From assembly GCF_046105845.1 (NCBI RefSeq), contig NZ_CP151004.1: a stretch of 64,000 nucleotides of DNA; one strand, 5' to 3'. This DNA is from Escherichia coli (GTDB lineage Bacteria > Pseudomonadota > Gammaproteobacteria > Enterobacterales > Enterobacteriaceae). Below the pieces are notes generated by a model, which saw only the letters and a list, made by a program, of their open reading frames with translations, made no database searches and was not told the origin of the DNA. Made by a program: the position numbers and the translations under genes. Shown here one piece after another: positions 17,646-36,425 of this stretch; the stretch's first letter is position 1; every line of letters begins with the position of its first letter.

Positions 17646-18560
17646 ATGGGTAAAACAATAAGTATGAAGCTTCTGTTCGGTATTTATCTTCTATTAATGG
17701 CAGGCAAAGTTTTTGCCTTCAGTTGTAATGTCGATGGCGGGTCAAGTATTGGAGCAGGTACAACCTCTGTTTATGTTAATCTCGACCCTGTAATACAACC
17801 GGGCCAGAATCTGGTTGTAGACTTGTCTCAGCACATAAGTTGCTGGAATGATTACGGCGGCTGGTACGACACTGATCATATAAACCTGGTACAAGGCTCA
17901 GCTTTCGCAGGCTCTCTACAGTCATATAAAGGATCGCTGTACTGGAATAATGTGACCTACCCCTTCCCGTTGACGACAAATACTAATGTATTAGATATTG
18001 GTGATAAGACACCGATGCCATTACCGTTAAAACTCTATATTACCCCAGTCGGTGCGGCCGGTGGAGTTGTCATAAAAGCCGGGGAAGTTATTGCCCGTAT
18101 TCATATGTATAAAATTGCCACGTTAGGAAGCGGAAATCCGCGTAATTTTACGTGGAATATTATTTCAAATAACAGTGTTGTTATGCCAACAGGCGGCTGC
18201 ACCGTTGATAGTCGTAATGTCAACGTGAATCTCCCGGACTTTCCTGGAAGCGCAGAAATACCCCTTGGCGTATATTGCTCAAGTGAACAAAAGCTCTCAT
18301 TTTATCTTTCGGGTGCTACCACTGACAGTGCCAGACAAGTGTTTGCTAACACAGCACCAGATGCAACAAAAGCATCGGGAGTGGGTGTCTCTCTGATGCG
18401 TAATGGAAAAATACTGGCTACGGGAGAAAACGTCTCCCTGGGGACAGTAAATAAAAGCAAAGTACCTCTGGGTTTAAGCGCAACCTATGGACAAACAGGA
18501 AACAAGGTTGCAGCCGGAACCGTCCAGTCAGTCATTGGTGTCACTTTTATCTATGAATAA
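17646..18560 (+). CDS. ydeQ: Fimbrial tip adhesin (FimH-like two-domain adhesin)
   Basis: 304-aa, signal peptide, N-terminal lectin-like domain + C-terminal pilin domain; last gene of fimbrial operon. Confidence 0.8.
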
Positions 18561-18632
18561 TTGTGATTTTGACATTGGTCTATGCGCTCCATTCACGAAA
18601 ATTGCGCGGATATTTATTTTGTGAAGGCTATT

Positions 18633-18650
18633 ATCCTACATCTGTAAGAA
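18633..18650. promoter_or_regulatory. EvgA box (ATCCTACA-TC-TGTAAGAA) upstream of ydeP
   Basis: Matches the 18-bp EvgA inverted-repeat consensus TTCYTACA-N2-TGTARGAA; ydeP is a known direct EvgA target. Confidence 0.7.
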
Positions 18651-18892
18651 AATCCGCGCACAATTGAAGCCAGAGTCTTATTTTTTATATTGAAAAATAT
18701 GTTAATTTAAACACTATGAGAGATGATGCTTAATTTATCGTATTTAATCTTTTGTTTAACGATAATAGATTAAAATAGAAAGAGAGTAGTCCCCTACTCT
18801 TATATATCCATGTTGACGATAATCCCTTTGTATATACTGTGCATCATCGCTATTACAAATCCTAATAATTCATTTCCACACAGGATAAGCAG

Positions 18893-21172
18893 ATGAAGAA
18901 AAAAATTGAATCCTACCAGGGAGCTGCCGGTGGTTGGGGTGCTGTTAAATCCGTAGCGAATGCAGTACGTAAGCAGATGGATATACGCCAGGATGTTATT
19001 GCCATGTTTGACATGAATAAGCCAGAGGGCTTTGACTGTCCGGGTTGTGCATGGCCAGATCCTAAGCACAGTGCGTCATTCGACATTTGTGAAAACGGCG
19101 CAAAAGCAATCGCCTGGGAAGTCACGGATAAGCAGGTAAACGCCTCTTTCTTTGCTGAGAATACGGTTCAATCATTACTTACCTGGGGAGACCACGAGCT
19201 CGAGGCTGCGGGGCGTCTCACCCAGCCTTTGAAATATGATGCCGTCAGCGACTGTTACAAGCCATTAAGCTGGCAACAAGCTTTCGACGAAATTGGCGAA
19301 CGCCTTCAAAGCTATAGTGATCCCAATCAGGTTGAATTCTATACTTCGGGCCGCACTTCCAATGAAGCTGCCTTTCTTTATCAGCTTTTTGCCCGTGAAT
19401 ACGGGAGCAATAACTTCCCCGACTGCTCCAACATGTGCCATGAACCGACCAGTGTGGGTTTGGCAGCGAGTATCGGTGTAGGTAAAGGGACCGTGTTGCT
19501 GGAAGACTTTGAGAAATGCGATTTAGTCATTTGCATTGGGCATAACCCTGGTACAAACCACCCTCGCATGTTGACTTCGTTGCGCGCTTTAGTGAAACGG
19601 GGAGCGAAAATGATCGCCATCAATCCTCTACAGGAACGTGGCCTGGAGCGATTTACCGCACCGCAAAACCCGTTTGAAATGCTGACGAACTCTGAGACTC
19701 AGTTGGCCAGTGCCTACTATAACGTGCGCATTGGTGGTGATATGGCGTTGCTCAAGGGGATGATGCGCCTGTTAATTGAGCGCGATGATGCTGCAAGCGC
19801 CGCAGGTCGGCCCTCATTGCTGGATGACGAATTTATTCAAACGCATACCGTCGGCTTTGACGAGCTACGCCGTGACGTGCTCAATTCCGAGTGGAAAGAT
19901 ATCGAACGTATTTCTGGATTAAGTCAGACTCAAATCGCCGAACTGGCTGATGCATATGCCGCTGCCGAACGCACCATTATCTGTTACGGAATGGGGATCA
20001 CTCAGCACGAACATGGTACCCAGAATGTACAGCAACTGGTCAATCTGCTGTTGATGAAAGGTAACATTGGCAAGCCTGGTGCGGGTATCTGCCCACTACG
20101 AGGTCACTCTAATGTACAGGGCGACCGAACCGTCGGTATCACCGAGAAACCGTCTGCAGAGTTTCTGGCTCGCCTGGGTGAGCGCTATGGTTTCACCCCA
20201 CCTCATGCACCTGGACATGCTGCAATTGCCAGCATGCAAGCAATATGTACGGGGCAGGCTCGAGCATTGATCTGCATGGGGGGCAACTTTGCACTGGCAA
20301 TGCCAGATCGGGAAGCGAGCGCTGTACCGTTAACGCAATTAGATTTGGCGGTACACGTAGCCACTAAGCTTAACCGCTCTCATCTGCTGACCGCACGGCA
20401 TAGCTATATTCTGCCGGTTCTTGGGCGTAGCGAGATTGACATGCAAAAAAGCGGTGCGCAGGCGGTAACCGTTGAGGATTCAATGTCGATGATTCATGCC
20501 TCGCGTGGCGTGTTAAAACCCGCCGGTGTAATGCTGAAATCAGAGTGTGCAGTGGTCGCGGGAATCGCGCAGGCAGCACTACCCCAGAGCGTGGTAGCCT
20601 GGGAGTATCTGGTGGAAGATTATGATCGCATTCGCAATGACATTGAAGCTGTGCTGCCAGAGTTCGCCGACTATAACCAGCGCATCCGTCATCCCGGTGG
20701 TTTTCACCTGATAAATGCAGCTGCTGAAAGGCGCTGGATGACGCCGTCAGGTAAGGCTAATTTCATTACCAGTAAAGGGCTGTTAGAAGATCCCTCTTCA
20801 GCGTTTAACAGTAAGCTAGTCATGGCGACAGTACGCAGTCACGATCAGTACAACACGACGATTTATGGTATGGATGATCGCTATCGAGGGGTATTCGGTC
20901 AACGAGATGTGGTCTTTATGAGTGCTAAACAAGCTAAAATTTGCCGTGTAAAAAACGGCGAAAGAGTTAATCTTATTGCGCTTACGCCAGACGGTAAGCG
21001 AAGCTCACGCCGCATGGATAGATTAAAAGTGGTCATTTACCCTATGGCTGACCGCTCACTGGTGACCTATTTTCCAGAATCGAATCACATGCTAACACTT
21101 GATAACCACGATCCATTGAGTGGCATTCCTGGCTATAAAAGTATTCCGGTTGAATTAGAACCATCAAATTAA
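18893..21172 (+). CDS. ydeP: Acid-resistance molybdopterin oxidoreductase YdeP (formate-dehydrogenase-like)
   Basis: 759-aa [31 protein letters not shown]...; matches K-12 YdeP. Confidence 0.95.
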
Positions 21173-21185
21173 TTCGCCTCCTCAT

Positions 21186-21216
21186 TTCTTCTGCTGTCAT
21201 CCGCACAGCAGAAGAA
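21186..21216 (+). terminator. Terminator-like hairpin after ydeP
   Basis: 12-bp stem TTCTTCTGCTGT / ACAGCAGAAGAA with 7-nt loop; weak U tract. Confidence 0.5.
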
Positions 21217-21290
21217 TTCCTCATTGACCATTGTCGCGCAATTTACTCACATGTGCTAAATTAAACTGCTCGTTATAAGATATATACCTC

Positions 21291-21308
21291 CGCCTACAGC
21301 TGTAAGAA
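21291..21308. promoter_or_regulatory. EvgA box (CGCCTACA-GC-TGTAAGAA) upstream of safA-ydeO
   Basis: Second copy of the EvgA inverted-repeat motif; safA-ydeO is a known EvgA-activated operon. Confidence 0.7.
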
Positions 21309-21419
21309 ACTCCGCTCAGTACTGAAGCGCCAGTCCTATTTCCTCTATTCTCCAGCCTGTTATATTAAGCATACTGATTAACGATGCTTAACGTCATTCG
21401 TTTAATAAACATATTTGAA

Positions 21420-21617
21420 ATGCATGCGACCATAGTGAAAAATAAAATCACGCAAAGAGACAACTATAAAGGGATCATGTCTGTAATTGTGGTTGTATTA
21501 TTACTGACCCTTACATTGATAGCCATTTTTTCGGCAATTGATCAGCTGGGTATTTCAGAAATGGGTCGCATTGCAAGGGATCTTACACATTTCATTATCA
21601 ATAGTTTGCAAGACTGA
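21420..21617 (+). CDS. safA: Small membrane connector protein SafA (links EvgS/EvgA to PhoQ/PhoP)
   Basis: 65-aa product MHATIVKNKITQRDNYKGIMSVIVVVLLLTLTLIAIFSAIDQLG...; single TM helix; position before ydeO. Confidence 0.85.
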   Translation: MHATIVKNKITQRDNYKGIMSVIVVVLLLTLTLIAIFSAIDQLGISEMGRIARDLTHFIINSLQD

Positions 21618-21691
21618 AAATAAACAGCAAATTATAAATATGAAATGTTAAAAAAGTATCGATAAAAACTTTATTGTTTTAAGGAGATAAA

Positions 21692-22453
21692 ATGTCGCTC
21701 GTTTGTTCTGTTATATTTATTCATCATGCCTTCAACGCTAACATTTTAGATAAAGATTACGCCTTCTCTGACGGCGAGATCCTGATGGTAGATAACGCTG
21801 TTCGTACGCATTTTGAACCTTATGAGCGGCATTTCAAAGAAATCGGATTTAATGAAAATACCATTAAAAAATATCTACAATGCACTAACATCCAGACAGT
21901 GACGGTGCCTGTTCCTGCGAAGTTTTTACGTGCTTCAAATGTACCGACTGGATTGCTTAATGAAATGATTGCTTATCTCAACTCGGAAGAACGCAATCAT
22001 CATAATTTTTCAGAACTTTTGCTTTTTTCTTGCCTGTCTATTTTTGCCGCATGCAAAGGTTTCATTACACTATTAACTAACGGTGTGCTATCCGTTTCCG
22101 GGAAAGTGAGAAATATTGTCAACATGAAGCTGGCGCACCCATGGAAGCTGAAAGATATTTGTGACTGCCTGTACATCAGTGAAAGCCTGCTCAAGAAAAA
22201 ACTAAAGCAAGAGCAAACGACATTCTCACAGATTCTTTTAGATGCCAGAATGCAGCACGCAAAAAATTTGATACGCGTAGAAGGTTCTGTTAATAAAATT
22301 GCCGAACAATGTGGTTATGCCAGTACATCTTATTTTATTTATGCGTTCCGCAAACATTTCGGCAACAGTCCGAAGAGAGTTTCTAAGGAGTACCGTTGTC
22401 AAAGGCACACGGGAATAAATACGGGCAACACGATGAATGCTTTAGCTATTTGA
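21692..22453 (+). CDS. ydeO: AraC-family acid-resistance regulator YdeO
   Basis: 253-aa ORF with C-terminal AraC HTH (…YASTSYFIYAFRKHFGNSPKR…); matches K-12 YdeO. Confidence 0.9.
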   Translation: MSLVCSVIFIHHAFNANILDKDYAFSDGEILMVDNAVRTHFEPYERHFKEIGFNENTIKKYLQCTNIQTVTVPVPAKFLRASNVPTGLLNEMIAYLNSEERNHHNFSELLLFSCLSIFAACKGFITLLTNGVLSVSGKVRNIVNMKLAHPWKLKDICDCLYISESLLKKKLKQEQTTFSQILLDARMQHAKNLIRVEGSVNKIAEQCGYASTSYFIYAFRKHFGNSPKRVSKEYRCQRHTGINTGNTMNALAI

Positions 22454-22499
22454 TTATTTGCTAACGAGTAGTCAACCACACACGCTACGTAAGAATTAA

Positions 22500-22531
22500 A
22501 TGGGGCAGCCATTTCCTGCCCCGCGTTGTTT
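22500..22531 (+). terminator. Rho-independent terminator after ydeO
   Basis: GGGGCAG-CCATTTC-CTGCCCC followed by GCGTTGTTTTT. Confidence 0.7.
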
Positions 22532-22854
22532 TTAGGCGATATATTTATTGAAATAAATAAGTGACATTCATCACATATTTATGCATTTGCATAACCCGTT
22601 GCATGATTATTTATGATCTCAATTCGGCATTTTGTCAGTAAAATACAATAATTTATTAAATATCAATAGATTAGTTGTTTATCATCGAGAAATTACTTAG
22701 TAGAACAGAAAGTAATGTCAACGCTTTATGGACTGTTATTTCCCTTTTTTTAGCTAAATCTGCTATCTCTTTATGTGACTAACTTCACTTACATTCACTT
22801 ATTTCTCTTCGTAAAATTACTTTGGAATTAAGTACAATAAGAAGAGGAACATTT

Positions 22855-24537
22855 ATGAAGTCTGCATTAAAGAAAAGTGTCGTAAGTACCTCGATATCTT
22901 TGATACTGGCATCTGGTATGGCTGCATTTGCTGCTCATGCGGCAGATGATGTAAAGCTAAAAGCAACCAAAACAAACGTTGCTTTCTCAGACTTTACGCC
23001 GACTGAATACAGTACCAAGGGAAAGCCAAATATTATCGTACTGACTATGGATGATCTTGGTTATGGACAACTTCCTTTTGATAAGGGATCTTTTGACCCA
23101 AAAACAATGGAAAATCGTGAAGTTGTCGATACCTACAAAATAGGGATAGATAAAGCCATTGAAGCTGCGCAAAAATCAACGCCGACGCTCCTTTCATTAA
23201 TGGATGAAGGCGTACGTTTTACTAACGGCTATGTGGCGCACGGTGTTTCCGGCCCCTCCCGCGCCGCAATAATGACCGGTCGAGCGCCCGCCCGCTTTGG
23301 TGTCTATTCCAATACCGATGCTCAGGATGGTATTCCGCTAACAGAAACTTTCTTGCCTGAATTATTCCAGAATCATGGTTATTACACTGCAGCAGTAGGT
23401 AAATGGCACTTGTCAAAAATCAGTAATGTGCCAGTACCAGAAGATAAACAAACGCGTGACTATCATGACAACTTCACCACATTTTCTGCGGAAGAATGGC
23501 AACCTCAAAACCGTGGCTTTGATTACTTTATGGGATTCCACGCTGCAGGAACGGCATATTACAACTCCCCTTCACTGTTCAAAAACCGTGAACGCGTCCC
23601 CGCAAAAGGTTATATCAGCGATCAGTTAACCGATGAGGCAATTGGCGTTGTTGATCGTGCCAAAACACTTGACCAGCCTTTTATGCTTTACCTGGCTTAT
23701 AATGCTCCGCACCTGCCAAATGATAATCCTGCACCGGAGCAATATCAGAAGCAATTTAATACTGGTAGTCAAACAGCAGATAACTACTACGCTTCCGTTT
23801 ATTCTGTTGATCAGGGTGTAAAACGCATTCTCGAACAACTGAAGAAAAACGGACAGTATGACAATACTATTATTCTCTTTACCTCCGATAATGGTGCGGT
23901 TATCGATGGTCCTCTGCCGCTGAACGGGGCGCAAAAAGGCTATAAGAGTCAGACCTATCCTGGCGGTACTCACACCCCAATGTTTATGTGGTGGAAAGGA
24001 AAACTTCAACCCGGTAATTATGACAAGCTGATTTCCGCAATGGATTTCTACCCGACAGCTCTTGATGCAGCCGATATCAGCATTCCAAAAGACCTTAAGC
24101 TGGATGGCGTTTCCTTGCTGCCGTGGTTGCAAGATAAGAAACAAGGCGAGCCACATAAAAATCTGACCTGGATAACCTCTTATTCTCACTGGTTTGACGA
24201 GGAAAATATTCCATTCTGGGATAATTACCACAAATTTGTCCGCCATCAGTCAGACGATTACCCGCATAACCCCAATACCGAGGACTTAAGCCAATTCTCT
24301 TATACGGTGAGAAATAACGATTATTCGCTTGTCTATACAGTAGAAAACAATCAGTTAGGTCTATACAAACTGACGGATCTACAGCAAAAAGATAACATTG
24401 CCGCCGCCAATCCGCAGGTCGTTAAAGAGATGCAAGGCGTGGTAAGAGAGTTTATCGACAGCAGCCAGCCACCGCTTAGCGAGGTAAATCAGGAGAAGTT
24501 TAACAATATCAAGAAAGCACTAAGCGAAGCGAAATAA
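22855..24537 (+). CDS. ydeN: Ser-type sulfatase (periplasmic, signal peptide)
   Basis: Start MKSALKKSVVSTSISLILASGMAAFAAHA with RBS AAGAGGAA; sulfatase signature S-G-P-S-R-AAIMTGR (Ser in the C/S-x-P-x-R motif) read at approx. 23250-23285. Confidence 0.9.
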   Translation: MKSALKKSVVSTSISLILASGMAAFAAHAADDVKLKATKTNVAFSDFTPTEYSTKGKPNIIVLTMDDLGYGQLPFDKGSFDPKTMENREVVDTYKIGIDKAIEAAQKSTPTLLSLMDEGVRFTNGYVAHGVSGPSRAAIMTGRAPARFGVYSNTDAQDGIPLTETFLPELFQNHGYYTAAVGKWHLSKISNVPVPEDKQTRDYHDNFTTFSAEEWQPQNRGFDYFMGFHAAGTAYYNSPSLFKNRERVPAKGYISDQLTDEAIGVVDRAKTLDQPFMLYLAYNAPHLPNDNPAPEQYQKQFNTGSQTADNYYASVYSVDQGVKRILEQLKKNGQYDNTIILFTSDNGAVIDGPLPLNGAQKGYKSQTYPGGTHTPMFMWWKGKLQPGNYDKLISAMDFYPTALDAADISIPKDLKLDGVSLLPWLQDKKQGEPHKNLTWITSYSHWFDEENIPFWDNYHKFVRHQSDDYPHNPNTEDLSQFSYTVRNNDYSLVYTVENNQLGLYKLTDLQQKDNIAAANPQVVKEMQGVVREFIDSSQPPLSEVNQEKFNNIKKALSEAK

Positions 24538-24549
24538 CTAAACCTTCAT

Positions 24550-24575
24550 GCGGCGGATTTTTCCGCCGCCTTATT
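24550..24575 (+). terminator. Hairpin between ydeN and ydeM (attenuator/terminator-like)
   Basis: GCGGCGG-ATTTTT-CCGCCGC then TTATTG. Confidence 0.4.
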
Positions 24576-24588
24576 GAGCGAGATAGCG

Positions 24589-25746
24589 ATGCACGTTACA
24601 GCCAAGCCCTCCAGTTTTCAATGTAATCTCAAATGTGATTACTGTTTTTACCTTGAAAAAGAGTCGCAGTTTACTCATGAAAAATGGATGGATGACAGCA
24701 CTCTGAAAGAGTTCATCAAACAATATATCGCAGCGTCTGGCAATCAGGTCTATTTTACGTGGCAAGGCGGTGAACCCACTCTGGCTGGTCTGGATTTTTT
24801 CCGTAAAGTTATTCACTATCAACAACGCTATGCAGGCCAAAAACGTATTTTTAATGCATTACAAACGAATGGCATTTTATTGAATAATGAATGGTGTGCC
24901 TTTCTCAAAGAACATGAGTTTCTGGTTGGTATCTCGATCGATGGACCCCAGGAGCTACATGACCGTTACAGACGCAGTAATTCAGGTAACGGTACTTTTG
25001 CAAAAGTGATAGCAGCCATCGAGCGTCTGAAATCATTTCAAGTAGAGTTTAATACGTTAACCGTCATTAATAACGTTAATGTCCATTACCCTCTTGAGGT
25101 TTATCATTTTTTAAAATCTATCGGCAGTAAACATATGCAATTTATCGAATTGCTCGAAACCGGGACGCCGAATATTGATTTCAGTGGTCATAGTGAGAAC
25201 ACATTCCGTATCATTGATTTTTCTGTGCCTCCTACGGCTTATGGCAAGTTTATGTCGACCATTTTTATGCAATGGGTTAAAAACGATGTGGGTGAAATTT
25301 TCATCCGTCAGTTTGAAAGCTTTGTCAGCCGTTTTTTGGGGAATGGGCATACCAGTTGTATTTTCCAGGAGTCCTGCAAGGATAATCTGGTTGTTGAAAG
25401 TAATGGAGACATTTACGAATGCGACCATTTTGTCTATCCACAGTACAAAATTGGAAACATTAATAAATCTGAACTCAAAACGATGAACAGTGTTCAACTG
25501 ACAGCGCAAAAAAAACGGATTTCAGCGAAATGTCAGCAATGTGCATATAAACTTATCTGCAATGGCGGTTGCCCTAAGCATCGTATTACTAAAGTAAACA
25601 ATGAGACTGTTTCCTATTTTTGCGAAGGTTATAAAATCCTTTTTTCAACCATGGTACCTTATATGAACGCCATGGTGGAGTTAGCCAAGAACAGAGTACC
25701 GCTTTACCACATTATGGATGTTGCAAAACAAATGGAGAATAATTAA
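24589..25746 (+). CDS. ydeM: Anaerobic sulfatase-maturating enzyme homolog (radical SAM, SPASM domain)
   Basis: 385-aa product [21 protein letters not shown]… (CxxxCxxC radical-SAM cluster motif) plus C-terminal Cys-rich region; adjacent to Ser-type sulfatase. Confidence 0.9.
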
Positions 25747-25992
25747 TAACGCTCCTTCTTTGCTCCAGTCTTAGCCTCCGTCTTATGACCTTAACAAAGC
25801 ACCCGACATAAATTCCTGTTGGGTGTTTCGTCATCATCATCTTCCCTTGCGAAAATCCTGGCTTACGTGGTATGCGTCAGGGCATTAGCAATATCCTTGA
25901 TTATCAATAGCATAACCATAACCACTGAAAATGAAATATTCCTTTATATTTCATATTGTTAAATGATACTTAAATAAATTTCATCAGTAAAT

Positions 25993-26016
25993 CATTGCCA
26001 TAGATAATCATTGGAT
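25993..26016. promoter_or_regulatory. Fur-box-like sequence (…TTGCCATAGATAATCATTGG…) upstream of yddA
   Basis: Contains GATAATCATT, a close match to the core of the Fur consensus GATAATGATAATCATTATC; 20-45 bp upstream of yddA start. Confidence 0.45.
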
Positions 26017-26036
26017 GGCACAATCAATTTTCGCTA

Positions 26037-27722
26037 ATGATAACCATTCCCATTACGTTTCGTATGTTGATAGCAAAGTATCTCTGTCTGCTGAAGCCCT
26101 TTTGGCTGCGTAAGAATAATAAAACTTCAGTGCTGTTAATCATTATTATCCTCGCCATGATCCTTGGCGTGGTTAAAATTCAGGTCTGGTTAAACGACTG
26201 GAATAATGATTTTTTCAATGCGCTAAGCCAGAAAGAAACCGATAAGCTTTGGCAGCTTGTTCTTTGGTTCCCTGCCCTGCTGGGGATCTTTGTATTAATA
26301 TCCGTAAACAAAACATGGTTAATTAAACTACTGACTATTCGCTGGCGCGAATGGTTAACAGATTACTACCTTAATCGCTGGTTTGCAGATAAAAACTACT
26401 ACTTCACGCAAATCTACGGCGAGCATAAAAATACAGATAACCCTGACCAACGTATCGCTGAAGACATTCTCTTACTGATCAGTAAAACGCTCAGCCTTTC
26501 ATTTGGCTTCATCCAGTCGCTTAGCATGCTGATCACCTTTACCGTTATTCTTTGGCAAAGCGCGGGTACGCTCTCATTCACTGTTGGTGGAACAGAATGG
26601 AATATCCAGGGGTATATGGTCTATACCGTCGTGCTCATTGTGATCGGTGGAACTTTATTTACTCATAAGGTGGGTAAACGTATTCGTCCGCTTAATGTGG
26701 AAAAACAACGTAGCGAAGCGACATTTCGAACTAATCTTGTGCAGCATAATAAGCAGGCTGAACTGATTGCGCTAAGCAATGCTGAGTCTCTACAACGCCA
26801 GGAGTTGAGCGACAATTTTCATACCATTAAAGAGAACTGGCATCGTTTAATGAATCGTCAGCGGTGGCTTGATTACTGGCAGAATATTTATTCGCGCTCG
26901 CTTAGCGTTCTTCCCTACTTTCTGTTATTGCCACAGTTTATTAGCGGACAGATCAATCTGGGCGGACTGATGAAATCGCGCCAGGCATTTATGCTGGTAT
27001 CGAACAATTTAAGCTGGTTTATTTATAAATATGATGAACTTGCTGAACTGGCTGCGGTTATCGATCGCTTGTATGAGTTCCATCAACTCACCGAACAGCG
27101 CCCTACGAATAAGCCTAAAAATTGCCAACATGCGGTACAAGTGGCTGACGCGAGTATTCGTACTCCTGATAATAAGATCATATTAGAGAACCTAAACTTT
27201 CATGTTTCGCCAGGCAAATGGCTATTACTGAAAGGTTACTCTGGTGCGGGAAAAACCACACTGCTTAAAACATTATCCCACTGCTGGCCGTGGTTTAAAG
27301 GTGATATTTCTTCTCCTGCTGACAGTTGGTATGTGTCACAAACACCGTTAATCAAAAGCGGCTTACTGAAAGAGATTATTTGTAAAGCACTTCCCCTGCC
27401 CGTAGACGATAAATCGTTGAGCGAAGTACTGCATCAGGTTGGTTTGGGGAAATTGGCTGCGCGTATTCATGACCACGATCGCTGGGGAGATATTCTTTCC
27501 AGCGGCGAAAAACAACGCATCGCGCTGGCACGATTAATTTTACGACGTCCGAAATGGATATTTCTTGACGAAACTACCTCTCATCTTGAGGAACAAGAGG
27601 CTATCCGCTTACTGTGTTTAGTGCGTGAAAAACTACCCACAAGCGGCGTCATTATGGTTACACATCAACCCGGTGTCTGGAACCTGGCCGATGATATTTG
27701 TGACATTAGCGCGGTTTTATAA
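26037..27722 (+). CDS. yddA: Fused ABC transporter permease/ATP-binding protein (exporter-type)
   Basis: 561-aa ORF; N-terminal TM domain, C-terminal NBD with Walker A GYSGAGKTT and ABC signature LSSGEKQR; matches K-12 YddA. Confidence 0.9.
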   Translation: MITIPITFRMLIAKYLCLLKPFWLRKNNKTSVLLIIIILAMILGVVKIQVWLNDWNNDFFNALSQKETDKLWQLVLWFPALLGIFVLISVNKTWLIKLLTIRWREWLTDYYLNRWFADKNYYFTQIYGEHKNTDNPDQRIAEDILLLISKTLSLSFGFIQSLSMLITFTVILWQSAGTLSFTVGGTEWNIQGYMVYTVVLIVIGGTLFTHKVGKRIRPLNVEKQRSEATFRTNLVQHNKQAELIALSNAESLQRQELSDNFHTIKENWHRLMNRQRWLDYWQNIYSRSLSVLPYFLLLPQFISGQINLGGLMKSRQAFMLVSNNLSWFIYKYDELAELAAVIDRLYEFHQLTEQRPTNKPKNCQHAVQVADASIRTPDNKIILENLNFHVSPGKWLLLKGYSGAGKTTLLKTLSHCWPWFKGDISSPADSWYVSQTPLIKSGLLKEIICKALPLPVDDKSLSEVLHQVGLGKLAARIHDHDRWGDILSSGEKQRIALARLILRRPKWIFLDETTSHLEEQEAIRLLCLVREKLPTSGVIMVTHQPGVWNLADDICDISAVL

Positions 27723-27759
27723 AAACAATAAAAGCCCTGCTGTACGGAGATAAAAATAA

Positions 27760-30132
27760 ATGAAGCGAGTTCTTATTCCTGGCGTCATTTTATGTGGCGC
27801 TGATGTGGCGCAGGCCGTCGATGACAAAAACATGTACATGCATGTTTTTGAAGAGATGACGGTCTATGCTCCTGTCCCTGTACCCGTAAACGGCAACACG
27901 CATTACACCAGTGAAAGCATCGAGCGTTTACCGACCGGGAATGGCAATATCAGCGATCTGCTGAGAACAAACCCTGCGGTACGCATGGATTCAACGCAAA
28001 GTACCTCGTTGAACCAGGGAGATATTCGCCCGGAGAAAATCTCTATTCACGGTGCGTCGCCCTATCAGAATGCCTATTTGATTGACGGTATTAGTGCAAC
28101 TAACAACCTGAATCCAGCGAATGAGTCCGATGCCAGTAGTGCAACCAATATTAGCGGGATGTCACAGGGGTATTATCTTGATGTCAGCTTACTGGACAAT
28201 GTGACGCTTTATGACAGTTTTGTGCCGGTTGAATTCGGTCGCTTCAATGGCGGGGTAATTGATGCAAAGATCAAACGCTTCAACGCTGATGATAGCAGCG
28301 TGAAACTGGGTTATCGCACTACGCGTTCGGACTGGTTAACATCGCATATCGATGAGAATAACAAGAGCGCATTTAATCAAGGTTCTTCAGGAAGTACTTA
28401 TTTCTCTCCAGATTTTAAAAAGAACTTTTATACCTTGTCGTTTAATCAGGAACTGGCTGATAACTTTGGCGTTACTGCCGGTTTATCGCGCCGCCAGTCT
28501 GATATCACCCGCGCGGATTATGTTTCGAATGACGGCATTGTCGCCGGTCGGGCACAGTATAAAAATGTTATCGATACCGCATTGAGCAAATTTACCTGGT
28601 TTGCCAGCGACCGCTTTACCCACGATTTAACCTTAAAATATACCGGCTCCAGTCGTGATTATAATACCAGCACCTTCCCGCAGTCTGATCGCGAAATGGG
28701 TAATAAATCCTACGGTCTGGCATGGGATATGGATACGCATCTCGCATGGGCCAAACTACGTACCACCGTTGGTTGGGATCATATTAGTGATTATACCCGT
28801 CACGATCATGACATCTGGTACACCGAACTTTCATGTACATATGGTGATATTACAGGGCGTTGCACCCGTGGCGGATTAGGACACATTTCCCAGGCTGTAG
28901 ATAATTACACCTTCAAAACACGCCTGGACTGGCAAAAATTCACCGTGGGTAATGTTTCGCATCAACCCTACTTCGGCGCGGAATACATCTATTCCGATGC
29001 ATGGACTGAACGCCATAACCAGTCTGAATCCTATGTGATTAATGCTGCCGGAAAGAAAACTAACCATACCATTTACCATAAAGGTAAAGGCAGCCTGGGA
29101 ATTGACAACTACACGCTGTATATGGCGGATCGCATTAGCTGGCGTAATGTGTCATTAATGCCCGGCGTGCGGTATGACTATGACAACTATCTGTCAAACC
29201 ACAATATCTCCCCGCGCTTTATGACGGAATGGGATATTTTTGCTGATCAAACCTCAATGATTACCGCAGGTTATAACCGTTACTATGGCGGGAATATTCT
29301 TGATATGGGATTACGTGATATCCGCAATAGCTGGACGGAATCGGTATCAGGCAATAAAACCCTGACGCGTTATCAGGATTTGAAAACGCCTTATAACGAT
29401 GAACTGGCAATGGGATTGCAGCAAAAAATCGGTAAGAACGTTATTGCGCGCGCAAACTATGTTTACCGTGAAGCGCATGATCAAATCAGCAAAAGCAGTC
29501 GTACCGACAGCGCGACTAAAACCACCATTACTGAATATAACAACGACGGCAAAACCAAAACGCATTCGTTCAACCTCAGTTTTGAACTGGCCGAACCCCT
29601 GCATATCAGCCAGGTAGATATTAACCCGCAAATTGTCTTTAGCTATATCAAGAGCAAGGGCAACTTGTCGTTAAACAATGGTTATGAGGAAAGCAATACC
29701 GGTGATAACCAGGTGGTTTATAACGGTAATCTGGTCTCTTACGATAGCGTTCCAGTGGCAGATTTTAATAACCCATTAAAGATCTCCTTAAACATGGATT
29801 TCACGCATCAACCGAGCGGGTTGGTGTGGGCGAATACGCTGGCCTGGCAAGAAGCGCGTAAAGCTCGCATTATCCTTGGTAAGACAAATGCGCAATACAT
29901 CAGTGAATATTCAGATTACAAGCAGTATGTTGACGAAAAACTGGATAGCAGCCTGACCTGGGACACCCGCTTGTCCTGGACGCCACAATTTCTGAAACAA
30001 CAAAACCTGACGATCAGTGCCGATATTCTCAATGTACTGGATAGCAAAACCGCGGTTGATACAACGAATACCGGTGTGGCGACCTACGCCAGTGGCCGTA
30101 CTTTCTGGCTTGATGTCAGCATGAAATTTTAA
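27760..30132 (+). CDS. yddB: TonB-dependent outer-membrane receptor-like protein
   Basis: 790-aa ORF with signal peptide, plug-like N-terminal region and C-terminal …WLDVSMKF (terminal aromatic); gene order matches K-12 yddB. Confidence 0.9.
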   Translation: MKRVLIPGVILCGADVAQAVDDKNMYMHVFEEMTVYAPVPVPVNGNTHYTSESIERLPTGNGNISDLLRTNPAVRMDSTQSTSLNQGDIRPEKISIHGASPYQNAYLIDGISATNNLNPANESDASSATNISGMSQGYYLDVSLLDNVTLYDSFVPVEFGRFNGGVIDAKIKRFNADDSSVKLGYRTTRSDWLTSHIDENNKSAFNQGSSGSTYFSPDFKKNFYTLSFNQELADNFGVTAGLSRRQSDITRADYVSNDGIVAGRAQYKNVIDTALSKFTWFASDRFTHDLTLKYTGSSRDYNTSTFPQSDREMGNKSYGLAWDMDTHLAWAKLRTTVGWDHISDYTRHDHDIWYTELSCTYGDITGRCTRGGLGHISQAVDNYTFKTRLDWQKFTVGNVSHQPYFGAEYIYSDAWTERHNQSESYVINAAGKKTNHTIYHKGKGSLGIDNYTLYMADRISWRNVSLMPGVRYDYDNYLSNHNISPRFMTEWDIFADQTSMITAGYNRYYGGNILDMGLRDIRNSWTESVSGNKTLTRYQDLKTPYNDELAMGLQQKIGKNVIARANYVYREAHDQISKSSRTDSATKTTITEYNNDGKTKTHSFNLSFELAEPLHISQVDINPQIVFSYIKSKGNLSLNNGYEESNTGDNQVVYNGNLVSYDSVPVADFNNPLKISLNMDFTHQPSGLVWANTLAWQEARKARIILGKTNAQYISEYSDYKQYVDEKLDSSLTWDTRLSWTPQFLKQQNLTISADILNVLDSKTAVDTTNTGVATYASGRTFWLDVSMKF

Positions 30133-30188
30133 TAGTTCGGATTTTACTTAACCGGGTAAATTTGCCCGGTTTTCGCATGGAGATAATT

Positions 30189-32972
30189 ATGAGAAACCTC
30201 TGTTTCTTACTGACGTTAGTGGCAACTCTGTTGCTCCCCGGGCGACTGATTGCCGCCGCCTTACCGCAGGATGAAAAGTTAATTACCGGGCAACTGGACA
30301 ATGGCTTGCGATATATGATTTATCCGCATGCTCAACCAAAGGATCAGGTAAATTTATGGCTGCAAATTCATACCGGTTCATTGCAGGAAGAGGACAATGA
30401 GCGCGGCGTGGCTCATTTTGTAGAACATATGATGTTTAACGGCACAAAAACATGGCCGGGTAATAAAGTCATCGAAACATTTGAGTCAATGGGCCTGCGT
30501 TTTGGTCGCGATGTTAATGCCTATACCAGCTATGACGAAACGGTGTATCAGGTGAGTTTGCCGACTACGCAGAAACAAAATCTGCAACAAGTGATGGCAA
30601 TCTTTAGTGAATGGAGTAATGCCGCAAGCTTTGAAAAACTCGAAGTAGACGCTGAACGCGGCGTAATTACTGAGGAATGGCGTGCCCATCAGGATGCGAA
30701 ATGGCGCACCTCTCAGGCGCGCCGCCCTTTCCTGCTGGCTAATACCCGTAATTTAGACCGTGAACCTATCGGCCTGATGGATACTGTCGCCACGGTCACA
30801 CCGGCACAATTGCGCCAATTTTATCAACGCTGGTATCAACCAAATAATATGACCTTTATCGTGGTCGGCGATATTGACAGTAAAGAAGCGCTGGCGCTGA
30901 TTAAGGATAATTTAAGTAAGCTTCCGGCTAACAAAGTAGCTGAAAATCGCGTCTGGCCGACAAAAGCCGAAAACCACCTGCGCTTTAATATCATTAATGA
31001 TAAAGAAAACCGGGTGAACGGCATCGCACTCTATTATCGCCTGCCAATGGTGCAAGTGAGCGATGAGCAAAGCTTTATCGAACAAGCTGAATGGAGCATG
31101 TTGGTTCAGCTGTTCAATCAGCGTCTGCAGGAACGCATACAGTCGGGCGAGTTGAAGACTATTTCTGGCGGCACTGCGCGCAGCGTTAAAATTGCACCCG
31201 ATTATCAGTCGCTGTTTTTCCGTGTAAATGCACGAGACGATAATATGCAGGATGCTGCGAATGCATTAATGGCAGAGTTGGCAACTATTGATCAGCATGG
31301 TTTTTCTGCTGAAGAACTCGATGATGTCAAATCTACCCGCCTCACCTGGCTGAAAAATGCGGTTGATCAGCAAGCTGAACGTGATTTACGTATGCTGACC
31401 AGTCGCCTGGCATCCAGCTCATTAAATAATACGCCGTTCTTGTCGCCGGAAGAGACATATCAACTTTCGAAACGTCTGTGGCAGCAAATTACCGTGCAAA
31501 GTCTGGCGGAAAAATGGCAGCAGTTAAGAAAGAACCAGGACGCATTTTGGGAGCAAATGGTAAACAATGAGGTTGCCGCAAAAAAAGCATTGTCTCCTGC
31601 GGCTATCCTGGCGCTGAAAAAAGAGTACGCCAACAAAAAGCTGGCGGCTTACATCTTCCCAGGCAGAAATTTATCGTTAACAGTAGACGCTGACCCACAG
31701 GCGGAAATTAGCAGCAAAGAAACGCTGGCTGAGAATCTGACATCATTAACACTTTCCAATGGTGCCAGGGTTATTCTGGCAAAATCCGCGGGTGAAGAGC
31801 AAAAGCTACAAATTACTGCCGTATCTAATAAAGGCGATTTAAGTTTCCCTGCGCAGCAAAAATCACTTATCGCGCTGGCAAATAAAGCAGTAAGCGGAAG
31901 CGGCGTTGGTGAACTCTCCTCTTCCAGCCTGAAACGCTGGAGTGCGGAAAACTCGGTAACCATGAGCAGTAAAGTCAGTGGCATGAATACGTTGCTCTCC
32001 GTTAGCGCGCGGGCTAATAACCCTGAACCTGGTTTCCAGTTGATTAACCAGCGAATCACCCACAGCACGATTAACGACAATATTTGGGCATCGCTACAAA
32101 ATGCTCAAATTCAGGCGTTGAAAACGCTCGACCAGCGTCCAGCGGAGAAATTCGCCCAGCAGATGTATGAGACGCGCTATGCTGATGACCGCACGAAATT
32201 ACTGCAAGAAAATCAGATTGCACAGTTTACTGCCGCAGATGCGCTGGCTGCCGATCGCCAGTTGTTTTCATCTCCAGCGGATATCACGTTTGTCATTGTC
32301 GGTAATGTCGCAGAAGACAAACTCGTGGCGTTAATTACGCGTTACTTAGGGTCAATCAAACACTCTGATTCGCCATTAGCCGCAGGTAAACCATTAACTC
32401 GCGCGACGGACAACGCATCGGTTACTGTAAAAGAACAAAATGAACCTGTGGTACAGGTTTCACAGTGGAAGCGTTATGATTCCCGGACACCTGTTAATCT
32501 GGCGACGCGTATGGCGCTCGATGCTTTTAACGTCGCACTGGCAAAAGATCTACGCGTTAATATTCGTGAACAGGCCTCTGGGGCATACAGCGTTTCTTCT
32601 CGCCTCTCGGTTGATCCTCAGGCCAAAGATATCAGTCATTTGCTGGCTTTTACTTGTCAACCGGAACGACATGATGAACTGTTAACGTTAGCGAATGAAG
32701 TGATGGTTAAGCGTCTGGCTAAAGGGATCAGTGAGCAAGAACTGAACGAATACCAGCAAAACGTTCAGCGCAGCCTCGATATCCAACAGCGTAGCGTTCA
32801 ACAATTAGCGAACACCATTGTAAATAGTCTTATTCAATATGACGATCCTGCAGCATGGACTGAGCAGGAGCAATTATTGAAACAAATGACGGTAGAGAAT
32901 GTTAACACTGCCGTTAAACAATATCTTTCTCATCCGGTGAATACCTATACCGGAGTATTATTGCCAAAATAA
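30189..32972 (+). CDS. pqqL: Periplasmic M16-family zinc metallopeptidase (pitrilysin-like)
   Basis: 931-aa product MRNLCFLLTLVATLLLPGRLIAA…; inverted zinc-binding motif HFVEH at approx. residue 85; matches K-12 PqqL. Confidence 0.9.
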   Translation: MRNLCFLLTLVATLLLPGRLIAAALPQDEKLITGQLDNGLRYMIYPHAQPKDQVNLWLQIHTGSLQEEDNERGVAHFVEHMMFNGTKTWPGNKVIETFESMGLRFGRDVNAYTSYDETVYQVSLPTTQKQNLQQVMAIFSEWSNAASFEKLEVDAERGVITEEWRAHQDAKWRTSQARRPFLLANTRNLDREPIGLMDTVATVTPAQLRQFYQRWYQPNNMTFIVVGDIDSKEALALIKDNLSKLPANKVAENRVWPTKAENHLRFNIINDKENRVNGIALYYRLPMVQVSDEQSFIEQAEWSMLVQLFNQRLQERIQSGELKTISGGTARSVKIAPDYQSLFFRVNARDDNMQDAANALMAELATIDQHGFSAEELDDVKSTRLTWLKNAVDQQAERDLRMLTSRLASSSLNNTPFLSPEETYQLSKRLWQQITVQSLAEKWQQLRKNQDAFWEQMVNNEVAAKKALSPAAILALKKEYANKKLAAYIFPGRNLSLTVDADPQAEISSKETLAENLTSLTLSNGARVILAKSAGEEQKLQITAVSNKGDLSFPAQQKSLIALANKAVSGSGVGELSSSSLKRWSAENSVTMSSKVSGMNTLLSVSARANNPEPGFQLINQRITHSTINDNIWASLQNAQIQALKTLDQRPAEKFAQQMYETRYADDRTKLLQENQIAQFTAADALAADRQLFSSPADITFVIVGNVAEDKLVALITRYLGSIKHSDSPLAAGKPLTRATDNASVTVKEQNEPVVQVSQWKRYDSRTPVNLATRMALDAFNVALAKDLRVNIREQASGAYSVSSRLSVDPQAKDISHLLAFTCQPERHDELLTLANEVMVKRLAKGISEQELNEYQQNVQRSLDIQQRSVQQLANTIVNSLIQYDDPAAWTEQEQLLKQMTVENVNTAVKQYLSHPVNTYTGVLLPK

Positions 32973-34889: not shown

Positions 34890-36425
34890 ATGGCTACATC
34901 AGTACAGACAGGTAAAGCTAAGCAGCTCACATTACTCGGATTTTTTGCCATAACGGCATCGATGGTAATGGCTGTTTATGAATACCCTACCTTCGCAACA
35001 TCGGGCTTTTCATTAGTCTTCTTCCTGCTATTAGGCGGGATTTTATGGTTTATTCCCGTGGGACTTTGTGCTGCGGAAATGGCCACCGTCGACGGCTGGG
35101 AAGAAGGTGGTGTCTTCGCCTGGGTATCAAATACTCTGGGGCCGAGATGGGGATTTGCAGCGATCTCATTTGGCTATCTGCAAATCGCCATTGGTTTTAT
35201 TCCGATGCTCTATTTCGTGTTAGGGGCACTCTCCTACATCCTGAAATGGCCAGCGCTGAATGAAGACCCTATTACCAAAACTATTGCAGCACTCATCATT
35301 CTTTGGGCGCTGGCATTAACGCAGTTTGGTGGCACAAAATACACGGCGCGAATTGCTAAAGTTGGCTTCTTCGCCGGTATCCTGTTACCTGCATTTATTT
35401 TGATCGCATTAGCGGCTATTTATCTGCACTCCGGTGCCCCCGTTGCTATCGAAATGGATTCGAAGACCTTCTTCCCTGACTTCTCTAAAGTGGGCACCCT
35501 GGTTGTATTTGTTGCCTTCATTTTGAGTTATATGGGCGTTGAAGCTTCCGCAACCCACGTCAATGAAATGAGCAATCCAGGGCGTGACTATCCACTGGCT
35601 ATGTTACTGCTGATGGTGGCGGCAATCTGCTTAAGCTCTGTTGGCGGTTTGTCTATTGCGATGGTCATTCCGGGTAATGAAATCAACCTCTCCGCAGGGG
35701 TAATGCAAACCTTTACCGTTCTGATGTCCCATGTGGCACCGGAAATTGAGTGGACGGTTCGCGTGATCTCCGCACTGCTGTTACTGGGTGTTCTGGCGGA
35801 AATCGCCTCCTGGATTGTTGGTCCTTCTCGCGGGATGTATGTCACAGCGCAGAAAAACCTGCTGCCAGCGGCATTCGCTAAAATGAACAAAAATGGCGTA
35901 CCGGTAACGCTGGTCATTTCGCAGCTGGTGATTACTTCTATCGCGTTGATCATCCTCACCAATACCGGTGGCGGTAACAACATGTCCTTCCTGATCGCAC
36001 TGGCGCTGACGGTGGTGATTTATCTGTGTGCTTATTTCATGCTGTTTATTGGCTACATTGTGTTGGTTCTTAAACATCCTGACTTAAAACGCACATTTAA
36101 TATCCCTGGTGGTAAAGGGGTGAAACTGGTCGTGGCTGTTGTCGGTCTGCTGACTTCAATTATGGCGTTTATTGTTTCCTTCCTGCCGCCGGATAACATC
36201 CAGGGTGACTCTACCGATATGTATGTTGAATTACTGGTCGTTAGTTTCCTGGTGGTACTTGCCCTGCCCTTTATTCTCTATGCTGTTCATGATCGTAAAG
36301 GCAAAGGGAATACCGGCGTCACTCTGGAGCCAATCAACAGTCAGAACGCACCAAAAGGTCACTTCTTCCTGCACCCGCGTGCACGTTCACCACACTATAT
36401 TGTGATGAATGACAAGAAACACTAA
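34890..36425 (+). CDS. gadC: Glutamate:GABA antiporter
   Basis: 511-aa APC-family transporter [33 protein letters not shown]…; matches K-12 GadC. Confidence 0.95.

Follow-up and report, generated by a model that had tools for sequence, protein, structure and literature searches.

The ydeN-ydeM pair of Escherichia coli: a probable Ser-type sulfatase with its own maturase, and a tentative lead to its substrate

Introduction

Close to genes of acid resistance, the Escherichia coli chromosome carries two genes whose products resemble a sulfatase and the enzyme that would activate it, which raises the questions of whether they form a working system, whether they belong to the acid response of their neighbours and on what sulfated compound they act. 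The genes are real and intact, and the pair itself is no novelty, having been annotated as an E. coli operon before and discussed since at least 2007. E. coli has three putative sulfatases without demonstrated activity, YdeN among them, and the role of YdeN bears on the use of sulfated host and dietary glycans by gut bacteria other than Bacteroides. A first-pass annotation of this DNA considered the substrate of the pair not established, in agreement with a 2024 paper, as of which none had been reported (PMC10878103).

The locus

The window analysed here (64,000 nucleotides of E. coli chromosome) contains ydeN at 22855-24537 (560 aa) and ydeM at 24589-25746 (385 aa), both on the plus strand and both exactly within the span 22855-25746 assigned to the pair in the first-pass annotation. 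Coordinates and strand also agree with its placing of the pair directly downstream of safA (21384-21617) and ydeO (21692-22453). Further along, gadB starts at 33334 and gadC occupies 34890-36425. The AT-rich character that had been noticed is borne out by a G+C content of 0.44 in ydeN, 0.39 in ydeM and 0.31 in the ydeO-ydeN spacer, all below the 0.47 of the whole window. An Rfam search of positions 18000-31000 gave zero matches. The pair is present in 5325 of 5426 complete E. coli genomes (ca. 98%), counting as positive those that carried at least 80% of the ydeN-ydeM region.

A probable Ser-type sulfatase and its predicted maturase

The sulfatase domain of YdeN is complete (Pfam PF00884, E = 1.3e-70, profile positions 1-301 of 301 aligned) and follows a putative Sec signal peptide encoded by codons 1-29 (22855-22941, plus strand), which ends in AHA and is followed by ADD. 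The signature S132-G-P-S-R-A-A-I-M-T-G-R, preceded by G-V, can be read directly in the translation (23248-23283, plus strand) and has Ser rather than Cys at the formylglycine position (Ser132, codon 23248-23250), followed by the xxxL/MTGR auxiliary motif, just as had been claimed. The second sulfatase motif, GYYTAAVGKWH, covers residues 175-185. A lack of the other catalytic residues on alignment had been named as what would speak against a sulfatase, and the full set turned out to be present: D66, D67, S132, R136, K183, H185, H286, D345, N346 and K364 are invariant among 16 YdeN orthologues, and the metal-binding and catalytic residues align with the same motifs of structures of sulfatase subfamily S1_19. 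The AlphaFold model (pLDDT 92, from an alignment of 62 sequences) matches sulfatase structures; a model made with the 16 close orthologues reached only 53.8 and was discarded. Compared to the S1_19 structures, YdeN and its orthologues carry ca. 28 additional residues (81-108) and extend further at the C terminus. Published work reports the protein both from tolA-mutant vesicles and from an anaerobic rumen-fluid proteome.

The first-pass annotation had described YdeM as a radical-SAM/SPASM enzyme with CxxxCxxC near the N terminus, and its match to the anaerobic sulfatase-maturating enzymes (anSMEs) is full-length. Both Pfam domains were found (Radical_SAM PF04055, E = 6.8e-22; SPASM PF13186, E = 7.1e-7), and the NCBIfam model TIGR03942 ('anaerobic sulfatase maturase') scored 502.4 bits over a cut-off of 349.45, with the next-best peptide-maturase models far under their own cut-offs. 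The radical-SAM motif CNLKCDYC (CX3CX2C) lies at residues 12-19, with the cluster cysteines C12, C16 and C19 encoded at 24622-24645 (plus strand). Those of the auxiliary clusters (C257, C263, C278, C315, C318, C324, C328 and C345; 25357-25623, plus strand) include a second cysteine motif at residues 315-328. Along the full-length alignment to the Clostridium perfringens enzyme anSMEcpe (PDB 4K36-4K39; E = 2e-62 for 4K36), all 11 iron-sulfur cysteines (three of the CX3CX2C motif and eight auxiliary) coincide and Asp279 aligns with the catalytic Asp277; the Cys-Asp catalytic dyad is conserved. In nature anSMEcpe serves a Cys-type sulfatase, whereas the partner of YdeM, whose activity is predicted, is Ser-type.

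These features, with the inheritance, selection and expression of the pair described below, make it very probable (we would put it at about 85%) that ydeN-ydeM is a self-contained two-gene operon, in which ydeN encodes a Ser-type formylglycine sulfatase of the periplasm and ydeM a cytoplasmic maturase dedicated to it. The chemistry that we infer is that of the characterised homologues, Klebsiella AtsA/AtsB and Clostridium anSMEcpe. A YdeN precursor bearing a Sec-type signal peptide would be synthesised first. YdeM, a radical-SAM enzyme that would hold three [4Fe-4S] clusters, would bind the signature of this protein while it is still unfolded in the cytoplasm, cleave S-adenosylmethionine, take a C-beta hydrogen from Ser132 and oxidise the residue to C-alpha-formylglycine. 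After export, YdeN would fold around a Ca2+ bound by D66, D67, D345 and N346, and the hydrated aldehyde would hydrolyse the sulfate ester with the help of R136, K183, H185, H286 and K364, roles that are assigned to these residues by analogy with homologues.

A close parallel is the AtsA/AtsB system of Klebsiella pneumoniae, which also consists of a periplasmic Ser-type sulfatase and an adjacent gene for a radical-SAM maturase, and in which maturation of AtsA takes place in the cytoplasm, before Sec export. The two systems differ in gene order (the maturase is first in atsBA, the sulfatase first in ydeNM), in sulfatase subfamily (arylsulfatase-type structures are distant from YdeN) and in regulation, by sulfur and tyramine in Klebsiella and by CRP, AraC and GadX in ydeNM. 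Klebsiella AtsA is poorly matured by E. coli K-12 without AtsB, and we know of no report of sulfatase activity in K-12, which would mean that its own system has weak expression or is specific for its substrate. The same genome has another sulfatase and putative anSME pair, AslA/AslB, at a separate locus and of a different sulfatase lineage. AslB and YdeM were reportedly studied by Benjdia et al. in 2007 as the two putative E. coli anSMEs, and deletions of aslB and ydeM reportedly left Cys-type maturation unaffected.

Inheritance of the pair

If the two proteins work together, a way to see it is the fate of their genes in other lineages. All 20 of the orthologous sulfatases examined, from Enterobacterales to Fusobacterium, are Ser-type (SGPSR), and a ydeM orthologue lies directly 3' on the same strand in 19 of these 20 loci, across two phyla. 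This strengthens the functional pairing of a Ser-type sulfatase with a fitting maturase that had been proposed from the E. coli sequence. Identity among orthologues is at least 54%; it drops to 45% or less in the nearest relatives outside the clade, which are mostly Cys-type (46 of 52). Since the out-group is mostly Cys-type and the clade entirely Ser-type with a linked maturase, both traits together define the YdeN clade. The genes are under purifying selection, with dN/dS values against E. coli 042 of 0.06 and 0.12 (ydeN-ydeM); between genera synonymous sites are saturated and dN is just 0.11-0.24. Their co-inheritance is obligate. A search next to the second sulfatase copy of E. coli found no maturase remnants.

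Clustering of all flanking ORFs at the 20 loci gave no recurrent neighbour besides the maturase, and no transporter or sugar-catabolic gene was linked to the pair. Reading the substrate from conserved neighbours was thus dropped, the maturase being the sole recurrent gene. A porin was seen upstream of the orthologous sulfatase in two cases only.

Promoter and regulation

A terminator-like hairpin after ydeO (22501-22523, plus strand; GGGGCAG-loop-CTGCCCC followed by a T-run), found by a terminator scan and kept in K-12 and in Escherichia sp. MOD1, is predicted to separate ydeNM from safA-ydeO. Downstream of it, 295 bases before the ydeN ATG, a pattern search found a distal CRP site on the minus strand (TGTGATGAATGTCACT, 22560-22575; one of three matches in the 64 kb), whose K-12 counterpart taTGTGAtggatgTCACTtat binds CRP in vitro with a Kd of 1.8 nM and has been assigned to ydeN (PMC12871828). 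Genomic SELEX also lists ydeN among CRP targets (PMC3105977). The same kind of search found a proximal CRP-like site (TGTGACTAACTTCACT, 22774-22789, plus strand), the most strongly conserved part of the spacer (E. albertii differs by one spacer base only). Its centre is ca. 42 bases upstream of the predicted start point, a class II geometry. That start would follow from the -10 hexamer TAAAAT of the proximal promoter (22812-22817, plus strand), predicted by a promoter scan and invariant in a four-way Escherichia alignment; the ribosome-binding site AGAGGA is at 22843-22848 (plus strand). No CRP sites were conserved upstream of the orthologues in other genera, which indicates that CRP control is an Escherichia-level feature.

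AraC was found upstream of ydeN by ChIP only with arabinose present (PMC3738151; PMC10878103). The region bound may be 22727-22765 (minus strand), where a TCCATA box (22732-22727) and two TAGC boxes (22765-22762 and 22756-22753) can be read with low confidence. The pattern TAGC-N7-TCCATA with up to three mismatches had 441 matches where 442 were expected, that is, chance, and was rejected as a way to locate the site; the TATGGA box is not kept in E. albertii either. The AraC site is for these reasons a candidate only.

Between the two genes, at 24550-24569 (plus strand), a hairpin (GCGGCGGA-TTTT-TCCGCCGC, then CTTATT) has a predicted dG of -18.7 kcal/mol (z = -2.45). G+C-rich hairpins of differing sequence occupy the same place in all 12 of the short spacers from Proteobacteria, and in E. 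albertii the changes in the stem preserve pairing; none was found in the 25-31 nt spacers of Fusobacterium. The hairpin is probably a partial terminator or 3' stabiliser that keeps the sulfatase mRNA above that of the maturase. According to a published statement, the two genes are co-transcribed and are a target of AraC (PMC10878103).

According to the literature, ydeN is transcribed from a CRP-dependent promoter of its own and its regulators are CRP and AraC, with repression by AraC plus arabinose, by GadX, whose binding at the promoter lowers the transcript (PMC4918353), and by low pH, where the fall of ydeN ranks with the strongest of any gene (log2 fold change -5.3 at pH 4.4; PMC10746267). 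In published data ydeN drops together with malE, lamB, xylF and treC.

What YdeN may act on

The top PDB matches of YdeN by sequence are S1_19 carrageenan galactose-4-sulfatases (E around 1e-51), although at only 37% identity, and SulfAtlas defines its subfamilies by trees or HMMs. Structure points the same way: a Foldseek search with the YdeN model had S1_19 members in 15 of the top 16 places, plus one S1_16 entry at rank 15. The best matches by both sequence and fold (ZgCgsA 9HH2, PsS1_19A 6B0J and PsS1_19B 6PSM; TM 0.80 over the target) come from marine carrageenan loci and are Cys-type, unlike YdeN, which is Ser-type and has no glycoside hydrolase neighbours. S1_19 and S1_16 sulfatases take the sulfate off O4 of galactose or GalNAc.

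Among the five nearest out-group relatives, three are found in chondroitin-sulfate loci, which have adjoining PL8 chondroitin lyases or else genes of GalNAc catabolism along with a KdgM porin and an anSME. These putative Cys-type sulfatases (P0122, P0125 and P0127; full-length, 39-45% identity) are embedded in large catabolic loci, unlike ydeNM, although one of them, beside the KdgM porin, also adjoins an anSME. In that locus the first sulfatase is a close match to a solved chondroitin/dermatan 4-O-endosulfatase (6J66). A different enzyme already serves as 4-O-sulfatase in the Vibrio-like locus, so that the YdeN relative there could act at another position.

The closest sequences and folds, together with the relatives from chondroitin loci, lead to a 4-O-sulfated galacto-type sugar, and our tentative choice, offered at well under even odds, is a small one (GalNAc-4-sulfate, Gal-4-sulfate or a fragment of chondroitin-4-sulfate). 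It would be small enough to enter the periplasm through porins, and the desulfated product would then be imported by general sugar transport. Against this lead, the supporting relatives are all at most 45% identical to YdeN, and the gut S1_19 member Amuc_1182 was inactive on every sulfated substrate tried. The insertion and the C-terminal extension of the YdeN clade, which S1_19 structures lack, also speak against it.

YdeN could instead be an arylsulfatase that scavenges sulfur from phenolic or other small aromatic sulfates, like AtsA of Klebsiella and Pseudomonas. Klebsiella AtsA/AtsB is the founding Ser-type sulfatase and maturase pair, and ydeNM has no linked transporter or sugar-catabolic gene. 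A sulfonated azo dye, FD&C Red 40, induced ydeN as the sole gene (PMC10653809). We find this proposal doubtful, given that the P. aeruginosa arylsulfatase 1HDH is distant (E = 7e-15), that the known regulators CRP and AraC are of the carbon-catabolite and not the sulfur-starvation type, and that ydeN falls alongside malE, lamB, xylF and treC.

A mucin-type GlcNAc-6-O-sulfatase was suggested in the 2024 paper, on evolution in the mouse gut, from a 33% similarity to BT4656; in mice, ydeM was also up-regulated alongside nagABE and galP (PMC10878103). The hosts of the YdeN clade, largely gut- or animal-associated, would suit such a substrate, but BT4656 (5G2V) matches at E = 2.6e-30, against 5.8e-52 for the S1_19/S1_16 enzymes, and is only at rank 47 by fold, which makes this activity unlikely.

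Is the pair functional in E. coli, and is it part of acid resistance?

The low G+C of both genes (0.39-0.44), the IS elements or integrative-element genes that flank the orthologues in Aeromonas and Salmonella and the absence, as far as we are aware, of reported K-12 activity might suggest a silent or decaying cassette, acquired horizontally and without function in E. coli. Such a fate is improbable for genes that are intact, under purifying selection and present in ca. 98% of complete genomes, with a strongly regulated transcript and a protein that has been detected.

The acid-resistance neighbourhood described in the first-pass annotation stands as far as position goes, near safA-ydeO and gadBC, and is not supported as a regulatory link: the evidence speaks against co-transcription or co-induction of ydeNM with the acid-resistance genes of the EvgA/YdeO/GadE regulon, and its setting is positional only. 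That the pair serves this programme, as its place between safA-ydeO and gadBC and the GadX bound at its promoter might suggest, is highly improbable in view of the predicted terminator 3' of ydeO, the lowering of the transcript by GadX, the fall at pH 4.4 and the unrelated neighbourhoods of the orthologous pairs in every other genus examined. From the terminator and the repression by low pH and GadX, induction of EvgA/YdeO is more likely to result in repression of ydeNM or no change.

Implications

For the Ser-type sulfatase and maturase pair, the analysis points to 4-O-sulfated galacto sugars as the substrates to consider first, and to catabolite-derepressed, arabinose-free, non-acidic and anaerobic conditions over acid-stress induction. 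The clade includes Escherichia, Yersinia, Salmonella, Proteus, Aeromonas, Anaerobiospirillum and Fusobacterium. A wider and more speculative picture, which we regard as possible but would not bet on, is that these facultative anaerobes living with animals share a discrete, horizontally mobile and uniformly Ser-type sulfatase that acts in the periplasm on 4-O-sulfated GalNAc or Gal, freed by primary degraders from host glycosaminoglycans or mucins, with the intergenic hairpin setting the sulfatase-to-maturase ratio. If true, this would provide a function for a long-standing unknown gene of E. coli and a route of cross-feeding in the gut.

Catalytic features of the pair

The observation of a Ser-type sulfatase gene followed by a maturase gene at ydeN-ydeM is confirmed, and its interpretation as a sulfatase-maturase pair is supported. 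The span singled out in the first-pass annotation (22855-25746) runs exactly from the start of ydeN to the stop of ydeM. YdeN (560 aa; 22855-24537, plus strand) matches the Pfam Sulfatase profile over its full length (E = 1.3e-70) and does carry the proposed Ser-type signature, G-V-S132-G-P-S-R-A-A-I-M-T-G-R, together with a second sulfatase motif, GYYTAAVGKWH; both were identified with PROSITE-style patterns. In an alignment of 16 orthologues (70-84% identity), D66, D67, S132, R136, K183, H185, H286, D345, N346 and K364 are invariant. In S1 sulfatases these positions serve metal binding and catalysis, and they line up with the motifs of solved enzymes of SulfAtlas subfamily S1_19, so YdeN is not a sulfatase lacking further catalytic residues, the possibility to which the annotation had left its reading exposed.

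The N terminus (MKSALKKSVVSTSISLILASGMAAFAAHA, followed beyond the AXA site by ADD) combines basic residues, a hydrophobic core and an AXA site, and no twin arginine is present in its sequence, so it reads, by eye rather than by a predictor, as a Sec signal peptide. The periplasmic label given to YdeN (PMC10746267) and its detection among periplasmic proteins in tolA-mutant vesicles both agree with this reading. Several database proteins of 742-878 aa (P0001, P0002, P0008, P0013) join YdeN to a portion of YdeO, of YdeP or of a fimbrial chaperone; most are entries with a single member, drawn from assembled read sets, and they seem to be products of faulty gene calling or assembly rather than true fusions.

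The radical-SAM/SPASM assignment of YdeM (385 aa; 24589-25746, plus strand) was borne out as well. Both domains are present, the equivalog model TIGR03942 scores 502 bits against a cut-off of 349, and the protein can be aligned over its whole length with the anaerobic sulfatase-maturating enzyme (anSME) of Clostridium perfringens, known from a crystal structure (4K36, E = 2e-62). YdeM keeps the CX3CX2C motif of that enzyme (in YdeM C12, C16, C19), all eight auxiliary-cluster cysteines (C257, C263, C278, C315, C318, C324, C328, C345) and the Cys-Asp dyad (278-279).

Distribution and inheritance

The stretch is E. coli chromosome: 5385 RefSeq records match 22700-25900 (top identity 99.4%), and at least 80% of this segment is covered at one place in 5325 of 5426 complete genomes. 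The gene order of E. coli 042 (ydeP, safA, ydeO, ydeN, ydeM, yddA, yddB, pqqL, gadB, gadC) recurs in the window, as judged from its list of ORFs and from the start of gadB, which matches exactly. For E. coli 042, RefSeq has a hypothetical protein of 40 aa on the strand opposite the ydeM 3' end (L001 12013-12135), whose counterpart by collinearity is at about 25712-25834 on the minus strand; nothing in the present analysis speaks for a real gene there. A 13 kb contig (JARKOR010000108.1) of a MAG labelled 'Candidatus Nanosynbacter sp.' carries ydeN and ydeM at 99.6-100% and 99% identity to those of the window, and is almost certainly mis-binned E. coli DNA.

Orthologous loci gathered from metagenome and genome collections came from Yersinia, Salmonella, Citrobacter, Cedecea, Mixta, Leminorella, E. 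albertii, Aeromonas, Grimontia, Psychromonas, Anaerobiospirillum and Iodobacter, together with Fusobacterium (54% identity). Each of the 20 sulfatases is of the Ser type and has SGPSR, and in 19 of the 20 loci the ydeM orthologue lies directly 3' on the same strand. All-against-all clustering of flanking ORFs from the 20 loci found no recurrent neighbour besides the maturase; the Aeromonas pair is flanked by IS elements and the Salmonella pair is surrounded by integrase and relaxase genes. When 1.84 billion representative proteins were searched exhaustively, the YdeN orthologues came out as a discrete clade, beyond which identity falls to 45% or less and relatives are mainly Cys-type (46/52). 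Ser-type status is thus inherited jointly with the linked maturase, as is biochemically expected since no enzymes other than those of the anSME type are known to convert Ser. Purifying selection acts on both ydeN and ydeM: dN/dS against E. coli 042 is 0.06 and 0.12 for the two genes, and between genera, where synonymous sites are saturated, dN is only 0.11-0.47.

Two loci (L004 2615-5544, L005 1497-4426) hold a further YdeN-like sulfatase of the Ser type (565 aa, 77% identity), whose gene lies directly 3' of a porin gene on an IS110-bearing island. Of 5426 E. coli genomes, 114 have this sulfatase, and 14 of the places are on plasmids. No maturase gene or remnant was found near it in these two loci, so it would need the chromosomal ydeM in trans.

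Between sulfatase stop and maturase start lies a stable G+C-rich hairpin (24550-24569). Such a hairpin appears in every short proteobacterial spacer examined (those in the window and in L002, L003, L007, L008, L010, L012-L015, L018 and L019; z = -1.8 to -4.7) and in none of the Fusobacterium spacers of 25-31 nt. Its sequence varies between loci, the stem changes of E. albertii preserve pairing, and in many cases there is a T-rich run behind it. The hairpin may act as a stabiliser or as a partial terminator, fixing the ratio of the two products.

Regulation

The annotation had placed the pair in an acid-resistance neighbourhood; this is true of the map, but the neighbourhood does not amount to a regulatory unit. 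Downstream of ydeO (22501-22523) is a hairpin with a T-run that resembles a terminator; it is terminator-like on both strands, the minus-strand version having no convergent gene to serve. Only three near-consensus CRP sites occur in the whole 64 kb, and two of them lie in the ydeO-ydeN spacer (401 bases, 0.31 G+C). The distal one (22560-22575) corresponds to a site of K-12 for which in vitro binding gave a Kd of 1.8 nM (PMC12871828), and Genomic SELEX lists ydeN as a CRP target (PMC3105977). The proximal CRP-like site (22774-22789) precedes by about 42 bases the transcription start that a TAAAAT -10 box would imply; no other block of the spacer is as well conserved against K-12, Escherichia sp. 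MOD1 and E. albertii. Both genes are co-transcribed and a direct AraC target, derepressed in an araC mutant (PMC10878103), and AraC occupies the ydeN region solely with arabinose present (PMC3738151); pattern search and the Escherichia alignment gave no confident placement of an AraC site upstream of ydeN. GadX binding lowers the ydeN transcript (PMC4918353), which at pH 4.4 falls by log2 5.3 together with malE, lamB, xylF and treC (PMC10746267). Taken together, the CRP sites, the AraC control and both decreases show ydeNM behaving as a sugar-utilisation operon under catabolite control would, one switched off during acid stress.

Candidate substrate

As the annotation held, no substrate of YdeN/YdeM has been published. 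Structure-sequence matches, fold matches and chondroitin-locus relatives, all of them indirect evidence, agree in favouring a small 4-O-sulfated galacto-type sugar, to which we give a tentative probability of little more than one in three. The top solved-structure sequence matches are S1_19 carrageenan sulfatases (E ~1e-51, 37% identity over 320 residues), followed by an S1_16 enzyme. With the AlphaFold model (pLDDT 92), 15 of the top 16 Foldseek matches are S1_19, a single S1_16 entry standing at rank 15; characterised members of both subfamilies take sulfate off O4 of galactose or GalNAc. The GlcNAc-6-sulfatase BT4656, the comparison made in a 2024 paper, ranked only 47th. Three of the five nearest out-group relatives reside in chondroitin-sulfate loci, two of them adjoining PL8 lyases. 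The locus of the third (Vibrio-like) also holds a KdgM porin, an anSME and GalNAc-catabolism genes, and its first sulfatase closely matches 6J66 (E = 2e-289), a solved chondroitin/dermatan 4-O-endosulfatase.

Against a 4-O-sulfated substrate count the distance of the relatives, the inactivity of one gut S1_19 enzyme on all substrates tried, a clade-specific insertion in YdeN (residues 81-108) and the fact that another enzyme already fills the 4-O role in the Vibrio-like locus. An anaerobic transcriptome showed ydeN as the sole gene with significant induction by FD&C Red 40, a sulfonated azo dye that a ydeN mutant nevertheless degraded normally (PMC10653809); this induction fits none of the explanations well.

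The genes are annotated, the literature has referred to them as a pair of sulfatase and maturase since 2007, and their co-transcription and AraC control are already published (PMC10878103). What the present analysis adds is a sharper, testable substrate hypothesis for YdeN and a correction, namely that acid-stress induction is the wrong condition for testing ydeNM.
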